This document shows, in pieces, positions 15,006 through 52,290 of a DNA stretch of 64,000 nucleotides (position 1 is the stretch's first letter; the number at the start of each line of letters is the position of its first letter). The stretch lies in assembly GCA_951406725.2 (NCBI GenBank), contig OX597824.1, forward strand, positions 38,378,001-38,442,000. The letters are read 5' to 3'. This stretch comes from Octopus vulgaris. Taxonomy: Eukaryota. A program made the translations under genes and the position numbers. The notes below the pieces were generated by a model. It was given only the letters and a program-made list of their open reading frames with translations, ran no database searches and was not told where the DNA came from.

Positions 15006-15974
15006 TTATAGAAAACGTGTAAGTAGTGAATGCAGATGGAAACCATTGACGAGAATTATTTGGAAAATTCTTCCCAACATGATTTGTTCGGGTACCAATC
15101 TAGTCAACCAGTTTATTTTTGTGGTGTTTGATTCGCTATTTAAGTCTTGTAGTTGTCCTGCAACTAACTGTACAATGACGAAATGAATGCAAAGTTTGTA
15201 GACTAAAGGTGAAAACCGAATCCAAGAACTGGAAGGCGTCTCAATGTCTTGTTGTTCTTCTAATTCTTTATCTTCGATCTTTTCTTTAAAGAGAGACCAT
15301 AGGAATTCGAAACAGTCGCCGTTACACCATATTACACTGCTGAGTCTTAAGGCCACTTTCCCGATGAATAACGGTGTGAGAAATACTTGCGAAACTATAT
15401 TTTTTTCGCCCGGAGACATTTGCCACAACCAGTTGAATGATCGAACTGATGCATTGTGGGATTTCTCAACAACGAGGAGATTCGAGAGCTTTTGACAAGA
15501 TTGGCGTTGTTGTCCTTCGCGTCTCATCACATACATGACGATAGTGCTGATAAAGAAAATGAACGAATTCTCCCAGAGACTTCTGTCCATATACCATGTA
15601 GTGAAGTGGTTAAATAGAGTTAGGATCAAAATGGTCCCTAGCCACCAGTCAACTTCGAAGTATTTTGAAATAATAGTAAGCGTCATGGAATAGCTGACGA
15701 TTGAAATAATGGCGAAGTAGCGAAGGTAAGATGGCAGAGCCGTCCTCTTTGTTGAACTGTACGAGTCTTTAGGTTCATTGTTATCATCGTAATGAATGTC
15801 GGATCCACGGATCAAAATGAAAACGGTGAACTCTGTCAATTGACTTATTATGAAAAAGACTTCTTGAAGAAGTAAATAAGGTTCCGATAGTTGTAGGAAT
15901 ATGTTGTAAATCCATGTCAAATAGTAAGGCACAAAATCCACTGGTATAATCCAAGGGAGAAGGAAAAGTAAGGC
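15006..15974 (-). CDS. Terminal coding exon of a multi-pass membrane protein, Ice2-like (fungal ER Ice2/SERINC superfamily, not the vertebrate ICE2 gene)
   Basis: 322 uninterrupted non-repetitive codons. Strong acceptor TTTTATTTTATTTTTCAG|GCC, in frame (ALLFLLPWIIPVDFVP...). Several hydrophobic helices. Motifs FLQLSEPYLLLQEVFFII, SLWENSFIFF, FLTPLFIGKVALRL and RFSPLV. Confidence 0.85.
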   Translation of the reverse strand, partial: ALLFLLPWIIPVDFVPYYLTWIYNIFLQLSEPYLLLQEVFFIISQLTEFTVFILIRGSDIHYDDNNEPKDSYSSTKRTALPSYLRYFAIISIVSYSMTLTIISKYFEVDWWLGTILILTLFNHFTTWYMDRSLWENSFIFFISTIVMYVMRREGQQRQSCQKLSNLLVVEKSHNASVRSFNWLWQMSPGEKNIVSQVFLTPLFIGKVALRLSSVIWCNGDCFEFLWSLFKEKIEDKELEEQQDIETPSSSWIRFSPLVYKLCIHFVIVQLVAGQLQDLNSESNTTKINWLTRLVPEQIMLGRIFQIILVNGFHLHSLLTRFL

Positions 15975-16034
15975 CTGAAAAATAAAATAAAAATGATGTT
16001 ATTAATGGTTGAGTACAGGTATAAGAAGAGAAAC

Positions 16035-16103
16035 GTGTATTGGGTTTCCGAACATGAATAGCACTGGAATGATAGAAACAACACGAGGAAGAATAGGTCT
16101 CGC
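16035..16103 (-). CDS. Internal coding exon (ARPILPRVVSIIPVLFMFGNPIH) of the same gene
   Basis: Acceptor GCTAATGCCTCTGATTTCAG with a branch-like CTAAT, phase 0-0. A 60-nt GT-AG intron (16034-15975) removes an in-frame TAA. The donor CAC|GTTTCT is weak. Confidence 0.6.
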
Positions 16104-16299
16104 CTGAAATCAGAGGCATTAGCATAAATGAAAGAAGGCACCAACGAAAAAAAAAAAAAACACGGTAACAAGGAGTAGTCGACGATACATACGCACACAC
16201 ATACATATCTTATATATATACATATATATATATATGTGTGTGTGTGTGTGTGTGTGTGTGTGTGTGTGTGTGTGTGTGTGTGCGCGTATATATATACAC

Positions 16300-47898: not shown

Positions 47899-49619
47899 TG
47901 CAGCATACGACCACAAAGCAAGTAAATCGATCCCAGTCGTTCGACCAACTAAACCGAAGTAGTATATAACCTAAACTGAAGAAGTATATAAGTAACAAAG
48001 TGTCCCCAAAACACGTGCAGCTTAAATGGAATTCTCAGGTGAATCAATACGAAGCAGTGAGTGTGACAAGGCACGCTCTTTCAGTTACAGTTAAAATCCA
48101 TGTTACAGGTTCCCATTTCCGTCTATCCAATTGGATGTACAATGGTTGCCCATCACTCCTGGCCAGTAGATCGAATTTCGGGACCTCATGCTTGGAAAAT
48201 CATCTTTTTAACCACTTGGCCGAGTCGTCATCCTGCAAAACAACACGTGCACGCACAAACACTAACAACGATACATATTTATACATGTATGTATGTATGT
48301 ATGTATGTATGTATAAATAAATAGATAAATGTGTGTGTATGTGTGTGCAGATAGTATTTTAACTTCATAATTACGCATTATTATTACTTATAACTTTATT
48401 TACTTCGATTTCCACCGTTAGAAATGAAGTATTTCACGTTTCCACAAGTTTCTAAATTTTTATAACGTAAACAATATTTCTCACCTATATATATATATAT
48501 ATATATATATATATATATATATATATATATATATATATAAATGTATATATACATATATGTGTGTATGTGTAAAAATTTGTTCTTAAGCATTCCATATTCT
48601 TAAACACATATACTTACTCGGAGACACATTCAAGCATATTCACTCGTGGGCATATTCAATATTATATATATATATATATATATATATATATATATATAGA
48701 GAGAGAGAGAGAGAGAGAGATAATTATATATATATATATATATATATATATATGTGTGTGTGTGTGTGTGTGTGTATGTGTGTATGTATATTGTACTCAT
48801 GCGTATAATGTACACATGAATATATATAAACATTTATATACTTCTCCAAACTCATTCAACGAAAGTAACATCATCAACAACAACAACAACAACGATGACA
48901 CTAATAAGTAACACGTGTAATAACACAAACACCGCGATTACCATTTATTACTACAATAATCATCATCATCACTATCACCGACTTCATACCCGACGACCCA
49001 CCCCTGCAGACTATAATTATCATCTTCGTTGTCGTTGATGTCATCATCATCATCATTATCATCATCATCATCATCATCATCATCATCAACAACAACAACA
49101 CCAACAGCAAGAGTAATCCCTACAACCACACCGCGACGACACTTGTCATCACAAGCAACGGGTGTCTCTATGTGGTCGCATATCATTCTAGAAATAGAAG
49201 GAAATATCTCACCGCATCATAAAAATGAAGGACACATTAAATGACGTGGATAATGTGATCCGAGAGACACAATACGTTAGGAAAAAGTGGGATTGTCGTG
49301 GTAGGAATGATTGTGATCAAAGGATCAATGGTTCAACACGGACCTTGGGTTATAGTAACGCTTATAACAGCACCGGAATAATAATCCTTTCTACTAAAGG
49401 CACAAGGCCTGAAATTTTCAGGGAGGGGACTGATGGCTTACATGGACCCCATTGCGATATTGGTACCTGTTTTATCGACCCCGAAAGGATGAAAAGCAAA
49501 GTCGACCTCGGCAGAATTTGAACGCAGAACGTAAGGACGGACGACATGTCGCTAAGAATTTTGCCTGACGCTCTACCGATCCTGCCAGCCTGAGCACCGC
49601 AACAATAGTTGGAATAACA

Positions 49620-51955
49620 ATAACAATGATATAACCTTATCACCACTGCCACCGCAGCTACAGCAGTCTCAACGCTGCGCCACTACTCCGATCACAACCA
49701 CTTCAACATTACACCAGCACTCCATCAGCGCTCCACTACCACCTGTACAGGCACCTCAGGGAACTTTCATACACCATCACCACCACCACCACCACCACCA
49801 CCACCACCACCGCCACCACCACCACCATACCACCAGCCGCCGCCACCGCCACTACAACCCCACAACAGTAACCTCTTAACTACACAATCACTACAATAGT
49901 AGCAACAATAATAAATGTATTAATCACCGCAACTACCACTTCCAATACCACTATCAATACCATCATCAACGCCACTAGTGGTTCTACCAATTCTACTACT
50001 AACTAGTATCACCACAACTACCACTTCGCTTTCACCACCACCACCACCACCACCAATAACTCTACCAATCCTACTACTAATACTACTACCACCGCCACCA
50101 CCACCACCACCATTAAGTCTACCAATCCTACTACTACTACAACAACAACTACTACTACTACTACTACTACTACTACTACTACTACTACATCATCACCACC
50201 AATAACTCTACTACTACTACTACTACTACTACTACTACTACTACTACTACTACTACTAATACTACTACTACTACTAAACTAATTTCAGAACTACCACGCC
50301 ACCAAAGTTACCAGTAGTACCACAAGTACCAAATTTAACACATTACTATCACAACACCACCACCACCACAACCACCACAGCACTACAACTGCTATTGTTA
50401 CTACAACTACTACTACTACTACTACTACTACTACTACTACTACTACTACTACTACTACTGTCCCACCAAAAGTTCACCTCCACCATTAGGTCCTCCACAG
50501 CCATCAACACAACCAACGTGTACTTACCACCGCCAATACCATTCTTTACTTAGACAACCACCACCACCTCAACCGCTGTCTCTACCACCATCACTACCAA
50601 CACCACTACCACCACCTCCACCATTACCTATACCACCAAATCCACCACCAGTACTACCCCACCATCACTACCATCATACCACCACCACCACCACTATCAC
50701 CTCCACCACCATTACTCACATCACACCACCACCACCACCACCAATGCTACCACAACAACCACTCTATTAAAACTCAATATATATCACCACAATCACTACC
50801 ACAACCGCTACCACTCCACCGAAACTCCACGACACCACCACCAGCACTACCATCACAACAGCCACCCTACCAAAATCCAACCTTCGACAATACCTTGTCT
50901 ACCCCATCTTTACCACTCCAGCCACCACTACCGCTACCATCATACCACCACTTTCATCAGAACTACCACCACAGCATCACTACATCACCACTACCACTAG
51001 CGCTGCAACCGCACCAGCTACAACTATCACCGTCACCATACCACCATCGCCATACCGCCACTAACATCAGAACTACCACCCCAACATTAAAACAACCCCA
51101 CCATCACAGCACCACTACCACTACCACTACCTCTAGCGCCGCTGCCACTACCACTACCACTACCACTACCTCTAGCGCCGCTGCCACTACCACTACCTCT
51201 AGCGCCGCTGCCACTACCACTACCACTACCACTAGCGCCGCTACCACTACCACTGGCGCCGCTACCACTACCACTACCACTACCACTTGCGCCGCTACTT
51301 CTACCACTACCACTAGCGCCGCTACCACTACCACTGGCGCCGCTACCACTACCACTACCACTACCACTGGCGCCGCTACCACTACCACTACCACTACCAC
51401 TGGCGCCGCTACCACTAACACTACCACTAGCGCCGCTACCACTACAACTAGCGCCGCTACCACTACCACTAGCGCCGCTACCACTACCACTAGCGCCGCT
51501 ACCACTACCACTAGCGCCGCTACCACTACCACTACCACTAGCGCCGCTACCTCTACCACTACCATTAGCGCCGCTACCACTACCACTACCACGAGCGCCG
51601 CTACCACCACCGCTGCCACCATATCACCGCTACCATCGAAACTACCACCACTATACCGTCGCCGCCAAGCTGCCGCTAACATCAGATTTACCACCCCCCC
51701 TAATATTACAACACCCCCACTATCACCACCAGCGGCGCACCTGCCCTGCCGCCACAATGCCGCCGCTACCATCAGAACTACCACCAGGACAACACTACAT
51801 CACCACTACCACCAGCGCCCTTACTGTCTCTACTATCATACCTCAAAACTCAGTCACCACAACTGCACTGCCCCACCCTCCACCGCCGCCATCTCTGCCG
51901 TCACTATCATAGCACAAATTCCACATCACCATCATCACCACCACCACCGCCATCA
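49620..51955. repeat. Long degenerate (ACC/ACT)n trinucleotide array containing a minisatellite at 51108-51620
   Basis: Variable units of AGCGCCGCT+(ACCACT)n. Confidence 0.9.
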
Positions 51956-52046
51956 GCGAATCAAAGCAATATTGCAATAACAGAATAAATGCAATAATAG
52001 AATAATGGAATAATGGAATAATGGATTAGCGTTTTTGCCTACCTAC

Positions 52047-52290
52047 CTGACCGAGAGACTTCAGGTGAAGAAAACTCCTGGGTAGAATCTGCCCGGCGAG
52101 AATGAGGAGCGAAGTAAACAGAGATGCGCCCAGTACTGCGTGCACCCCGAATACGATGCCGTAAGCAGGGTAGATGAGAAGAGTCAACAGTGGTAAGTAG
52201 TCTGTGTAAGGATTCCGCCAGCAAAAGGATGCCATGCGAACAGGGTGGCCAGCAGCTATAAGCGTCCACCGTCTTCGCATTGTGCCAAAA
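52047..52290 (-). CDS. First identifiable coding exon of the Ice2-like membrane-protein gene (ATG at 52280 or 52235)
   Basis: Acceptor CCTTCTCCTCAG and donor CAG|GTAGGT (phase 0). GC-richer unique island encoding MRRRW...MASFCWRNPYTDYLPLLTLLIYPAYGIVFGVHAVLGASLFTSLLILAGQILPRSFLHLKSLGQ, with two TM helices. Confidence 0.8.

Follow-up and report, generated by a model that had tools for sequence, protein, structure and literature searches.

The window analysed here is a stretch of 64,000 nucleotides (nt) of the Octopus vulgaris genome (assembly GCA_951406725.2, contig OX597824.1, positions 38,378,001 to 38,442,000), and its minus strand carries a transcribed gene with two coding exons, as observed in assembled sequencing contigs. 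Based on the gene structure, the predicted fold and the relatives of the product, we propose that it encodes a ten-helix protein of 385-400 amino acids (aa) with a SERINC fold, a fast-evolving duplicate within the intermediate Ice2-like family that acts as an ATP-independent lipid scramblase in an internal membrane. Taken as a whole, we hold this reading with moderate confidence. The gene is annotated and its family has been published, and the finding is therefore modest as a genome-scan discovery; what is new here is that the gene has a further copy at a distance of 3.9 Mb, which shares its intron, and that the branch of the copy in the window is very long.

Gene structure and transcript evidence

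The first coding exon (52047..52290, minus strand) is supported by its sequence and splice sites, by the loose contig ends in all four contig sets and by the RefSeq protein. Its first ATG stands at 52280, leaving 78 codons for predicted transmembrane helices (TM) 1 and 2 and half of TM3. A single phase-0 GT-AG intron of 36,072 nt (15975..52046, minus strand), with many microsatellites and transposon fragments (seen as Pfam fragments), separates it from the last coding exon (15006..15974, minus strand; 322 codons and TAA), which encodes the remainder of predicted TM3 through TM10, among them a helix of 43 residues (95-137). This last exon is supported by its sequence, by the structural model and by a 27-sequence family profile built without octopus-like sequences, which matched it at an E value of 1.2e-27. 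A 3' untranslated region is placed at 14682..15005 (minus strand) from the contig ends and an AATAAA at 14720-14711; three contigs stop at 14682-14694, shortly beyond this signal, a weak hint of a poly(A) site there, contig ends being no proof of a transcript end.

The transcript evidence comes from assembled contigs of Logan runs, of which 4 of the 20 listed (four studies) were placed on 14300-16200; their RNA status is a guess of kind, none being on record as RNA. In all four of these RNA-type assemblies, the contig departs from the genome at 15978; the next 30 letters are identical in all four and are found once in the window, from 52051 on, where the first exon has its 3' end. Because letters 15975-15978 are identical to 52047-52050, a four-letter overlap, the splice joint lies exactly at 52047/15974. 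This contig junction supports the intron, as does the intron of a paralog that shares its position and phase. The joined exons encode 400 aa, of which 399 are identical to RefSeq XP_029642825.1 (Octopus sinensis LOC115217313), the sole difference being residue 309. The gene, described as hidden in an earlier note on this DNA, is thus already annotated.

That note had correctly recognized a spliced minus-strand gene, but with four exons and about 450 aa instead of two coding exons and 400 or 385 aa. All four of its segments are present with a preceding AG and open phase-0 frames, and with GT after the first three, their open codons numbering 78 (from the first ATG), 27, 23 and 322. These ends and the kept frame are what speaks for the four-exon product as the main form, together with the rank of the 81-nt second segment (24901..24981, minus strand; single copy in the genome), which was eighth among the candidates when splice sites were scored with approximate frequencies and weights. 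However, the 36-kb intron contains 1,234 open phase-0 AG..GT segments of 45-180 nt, so that GT-AG ends and open frames alone are weak exon evidence. Eight of them, counting the second segment itself, score at least as high as that segment, and 198 at least as high as the 69-nt third segment (16035..16103, minus strand), which has a weak donor. The outer exons stand far above the two middle segments, with acceptor scores of 9.7 and 7.3 and a donor score of 6.9, compared with -2.2/3.3 and 0.1/-7.1.

Against the four-exon form stand the direct junction of the outer exons in 4/4 runs, which skips both middle segments and leaves zero contig cover over 16028-16200, and the RefSeq length of 400 aa; together they refute it as the main product. 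Besides, residues 78 and 79 occupy neighbouring columns in the 32-sequence alignment, with an insert there in none of the 31 relatives, and the extra 50 residues would interrupt a membrane helix (68-87) in the AlphaFold2 model. Neither of the two family profiles matched the middle segments. We therefore give the four-exon form next to no credence as the main product, and both 24901..24981 and 16035..16103 are most likely intron sequence. Rare inclusion of the 81-nt segment may occur, considering that contigs lose rare forms and that 24901-24981 lies outside the 14300-16200 stretch.

The 5' end of the gene allows two protein lengths. Met16 (52235) aligns with the start of the relatives, and its column is M in 26 of the 27 other relatives; a length of 385 aa is thus plausible, and Met16 may be the real start as judged from the alignment. 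One contig (run X4) has 321 loose letters, 30 of them displayed, which is 81 beyond what exon 1 provides, and 52291 is a strong acceptor; an upstream exon or a longer 5' end is likely present. A profile made without the five octopus-like sequences did not find exon 1 of the window gene at E ≤ 10 and found that of the paralog at 1.3e-4, so that the assignment of exon 1 draws on the contigs, RefSeq and the full-length alignment. A profile search of the 10 kb past the window end found no additional family-like coding piece.

Predicted fold and conserved residues

An AlphaFold2 model built from 32 sequences (predicted local distance difference test, pLDDT, 76.2; predicted template-modelling score, pTM, 0.75) contains ten membrane helices, at residues 29-44, 46-65, 68-87, 95-137, 160-183, 188-207, 211-245, 279-315, 334-356 and 378-399, and the family-average hydrophobicity has about ten peaks. 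The best VIA-align match of this model, over its residues 24-400, was human SERINC3 (7rug_A; Z 16.0, root-mean-square deviation 4.8, 271 aligned residues), with the runner-up among 48,161 chains at Z 8.4. A weaker model from 12 sequences (pLDDT 58.4) was also closest to human SERINC3 (Z 15.6, next 8.7), and Foldseek ranked SERINC3 first (7ru6_A, probability 1.00). The 43-residue helix occupies the fourth membrane position in the model; a long crossmember helix is likewise described for SERINC (PMC10359404). The model thus predicts a SERINC fold, with two helical bundles joined by a helix of about 40 residues.

Six polar residues located in or beside the predicted membrane helices are conserved, namely E116, E231, R288, R380 and Q383 in 32/32 sequences and Q347 in 31/32. 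Ice2 has F154/E158 and fly SERINC F177/Q181, a phenylalanine plug with its polar partner, to which E116 in helix 4 may correspond based on spacing; the residue four positions before it is L112 in the octopus, and F in 5/27 other relatives.

Family assignment

Successive searches for protein relatives returned 2, 6, 6 and 26 (overlapping sets), all uncharacterised and 371-394 aa long, from bivalves, gastropods, one Argonauta and one sea anemone, Actinia tenebrosa (393 aa; E 1.8e-48; hhalign 99.8% over 338 columns). These searches were word-based and limited and do not delimit the range of the family; the published seeds XP_001631941.1 (Nematostella) and XP_013756618.1 (Thecamonas) were not among their results. 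A partial Octopus bimaculoides record (LOC106874476) is 96% identical to the window protein. In the ESM Atlas, the first cluster had 141 members, was dominated by molluscs and carried ICE2 in 30% (score 0.92, template-modelling score 0.69); fungal ICE2 clusters followed at 0.87 and 0.86, and then Serinc at 0.75. Together with the fold match, these neighbours support the earlier assignment to the polytopic, Ice2-related membrane proteins of the SERINC superfamily. Two canonical multi-exon SERINC genes exceed the Pfam Serinc cut-off elsewhere in the genome, on contigs C3 (77197901-77233967, minus strand) and C8 (82776428-82811886, plus strand); the window gene is therefore not the octopus SERINC, as the earlier note had also held.

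Alli-Balogun and Levine (bioRxiv 10.1101/2021.01.08.425964; Proteins 89:1240) described 42 proteins without known domain, mostly from invertebrate animals plus one fungus and amoebae. Their intermediate family branches together with Ice2 and resembles SERINCs more closely than Ice2 does; it is placed outside fungal Ice2 and has a 395-aa Nematostella protein as one seed. We infer, with high confidence, that the octopus protein belongs to this invertebrate "intermediate ICE2-like family". An invertebrate Ice2-like branch had thus been published in 2021 and is not the novelty it was taken for, and the octopus protein likely adds a diverged new member to a family already on record. The main text of that paper names no mollusc or cephalopod; its Supplementary Table 4 may list some.

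Since the gene fits this family, its occurrence in an animal is no surprise and gene transfer need not be invoked. The lateral gain of a fungal ICE2 gene, which could account for fungal ICE2 as the nearest non-animal clusters in the ESM Atlas, is highly improbable and the earlier suggestion of an ancient acquisition finds no support, considering the relatives in bivalves, gastropods and the sea anemone, the amphioxus, insect and amoeba proteins published as members (10.1101/2021.01.08.425964) and the missing Pfam ICE2 match. Scanned with E values up to 10 in part of the set and up to 1 in the rest, Pfam ICE2 (PF08426) matched none of the 35 family sequences, none of the four window segments and nothing at this locus, and the description as fungal-type Ice2 is not upheld. 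No match over the cut-off was found anywhere in the genome either; a sub-threshold ICE2 match on contig C2 carries stops, lies in a different place from the window gene and was rejected.

Several results weigh against the proposed fold and family. The cut-off of neither Pfam Serinc (PF03348, 24 bits) nor Pfam ICE2 (25 bits) was reached by any of the 35 family sequences. Weak Serinc matches were obtained for five of them (E 0.0008-0.13; two from Mya; best 18.9 and 18.4 bits), all confined to profile positions 118-268. These recurrent matches count in favour of the assignment and, like the order of the ESM Atlas clusters, agree with a family nearest to Ice2 that is more SERINC-like than Ice2 itself, while unrelated Pfam families give single matches of comparable weakness; the window protein itself had no Serinc match, and its four segments had no useful Pfam match. 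The Foldseek E value is merely 0.014, with template-modelling scores of 0.41/0.49, and the structural alignment with SERINC3 has 8% identity. ESM Atlas scores below 0.9 count as leads only. A search of PDB sequences with two profiles gave no match and an exon query one chance hit, and a comparison of the family profile with a single exon of an octopus SERINC reached a probability of 0.8%. Besides, no other family member has diverged as far as the window copy. A metagenome scan with a 7-sequence alignment gave 235 pattern matches, none of them confirmed.

Duplication and divergence

The genome search located a paralog that lies 3.9 Mb from the window gene and on its contig (C11:34454855-34460693, minus strand; loci L002, L003 and L005). 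It is 31-33% identical to the window protein, its exon 1 sits 4.7 kb upstream of its exon 2, and the phase-0 intron between them interrupts the aligned codon, in the same position and phase as in the window gene. With a protein of Argonauta hians that takes its name from LOC115217570, the paralog shares 67-83% identity. A midpoint-rooted tree of 32 rows was restricted to family relatives, with no Ice2 or SERINC rows and with the fragments P0004 and P0007 and near-duplicates excluded. In this tree the window gene groups with the paralog and three similar proteins in a clade supported at 100/100, and the branch of the window gene, with 1.9 changes per column, is the longest inner branch. The window gene is thus likely a fast-evolving duplicate. 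The whole octopus-like clade is long-branched, and because long branches meet at this clade and P0006 is placed weakly (81/48), the duplication is undatable.

The same long stem branch and low identity to the paralog would also suit a lineage-specific role adopted after the duplication, apart from bulk lipid handling, with the paralog retaining the ancestral job; other molluscs have a Trp-rich C-terminal tail, and its absence from the window protein points in the same direction. On the other hand, every family-invariant polar residue is retained, which argues for a kept core activity, and long branches are common to the entire octopus-like clade. We regard such a role as distinctly unlikely.

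Possible function and mechanism

Purified human SERINC2, 3 and 5 and two SERINC5 mutants have all been reported to flip lipids in proteoliposomes (PMC10359404), and simulations place the lipid head group in a central polar ring contributed by helices 4 and 7-10 (PMC12642633). Since SERINC2, 3 and 5 flip lipids and the octopus protein retains its polar residues, ATP-independent lipid scrambling in an internal membrane is the likeliest activity by analogy, and we put it forward tentatively. The protein would likely be located in the endoplasmic reticulum (ER), as judged from yeast Ice2. In the mechanism that we propose, the two helical bundles and the linking helix of roughly 40 residues would frame a membrane-embedded cavity lined by E116, E231, R288, Q347, R380 and Q383, through which lipid head groups would travel. 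A common fold is no demonstration of function, and none of the papers listed in the literature search tests Ice2 or the intermediate family for scrambling, both of which add to the points raised above.

The main alternative is a role like that of yeast Ice2, which binds Spo7/Nem1 to restrain Pah1 (PMC8591542). The octopus protein would then bind NEP1R1, the counterpart of Spo7, in the ER and hold back the activation of lipin that depends on CTDNEP1, tipping the balance from fat storage to membrane synthesis, a role compatible with scrambling. This role is suggested by the ESM Atlas, in which fungal ICE2 clusters closer than Serinc, by the branch that the published intermediate family shares with Ice2 (10.1101/2021.01.08.425964), by the co-precipitation of Ice2 with Spo7 and Nem1 (PMC8591542) and by the presence in the genome of a NEP1R1/Spo7-family gene (C1:127148432-127151319, plus strand; loci L021 and L022; Pfam Tmemb_18A). 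The absence of Pfam ICE2 matches from the 35 family sequences and from this locus speaks against it, and in animals the CTDNEP1-NEP1R1 complex is capable of dissociating and may need no outside inhibitor (PMC11145253). A complex prediction that paired residues 25-400 with a fragment of NEP1R1, a 60-residue exon, and used no alignment scored 0.00 and counts neither way. Overall, we consider this role rather unlikely. Slightly less probable still is a wider proposal, under which yeast Ice2 has its genuine counterpart in animals in this family: a SERINC-fold protein that inhibits the NEP1R1-CTDNEP1-lipin switch, by which the size of the ER is determined, and that was retained in invertebrates and duplicated in the octopus, with this copy specialised. 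Whether animals possess an Ice2-like lipin brake has been posed as open, with SERINCs alone considered (PMC8591542, PMC11145253). If the proposal were true, the animal counterpart would be the missing negative regulator of lipin activation and would tie scrambling to that control.

Other elements in the window

The large intron contains a THAP zinc-finger fragment (26495-26800, plus strand; Pfam PF05485, E 7e-8), probably a transposon remnant, and two mariner-type transposase fragments with HTH_48 matches (19684-19989 and 23265-23648, both minus strand). A further piece at 44371-44796 (plus strand) is mariner-like by eye only, with no Pfam match at 0.001. Outside the gene, 8819-10096 (minus strand) and 10292-11301 (plus strand) encode near-identical peptides on opposite strands, with no Pfam match, and therefore form an inverted pair of about 1 kb of a decayed element, which we take to be retroelement-like. 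Decayed retrotransposon-like pieces lie at 1348-2525 and 5553-5834 (both minus strand), the latter with a weak RVT_1 match (E 7e-4). Two Cys/His-rich, non-repetitive broken frames with no Pfam match, at 13375-13929 and 41018-42099 (both plus strand), look like pieces of one mobile-element type.

Comparison with known systems

The octopus protein has most in common with the intermediate ICE2-like family, whose members lack a recognised domain, occur in invertebrates including a sea anemone, measure about 340-400 aa, have the SERINC fold and are closer to Ice2 than the canonical SERINCs; it differs in having two copies in one genome, of which the window copy is unusually diverged. The literature search found no functional study of intermediate-family members and no paper naming these locus identifiers, and the RefSeq records LOC115217313 and LOC106874476 bear no family name or function.

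Fungal Ice2 (PF08426, Ice2p) is the nearest named family by ESM Atlas features and likewise has ten predicted membrane helices and, between TM7 and TM8, a loop that contains short helices. The octopus protein, on the other hand, falls below the Pfam ICE2 profile and has 385-400 aa compared with 491 aa for Ice2p. With SERINC/TMS1 (PF03348; human SERINC3, 7rug and 7ru6) it shares the predicted overall fold, the long crossing helix and an acidic loop after TM8 that, from the helix order, would take the position of intracellular loop 4. It differs from this family by its 8-12% identity, below the Pfam cut-off, and by its two coding exons as opposed to the multi-exon canonical SERINC genes of the same genome. 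Compact, with two exons and 30 aligned relatives, the octopus gene is a handy test object for both lipid scrambling and ice2 complementation.

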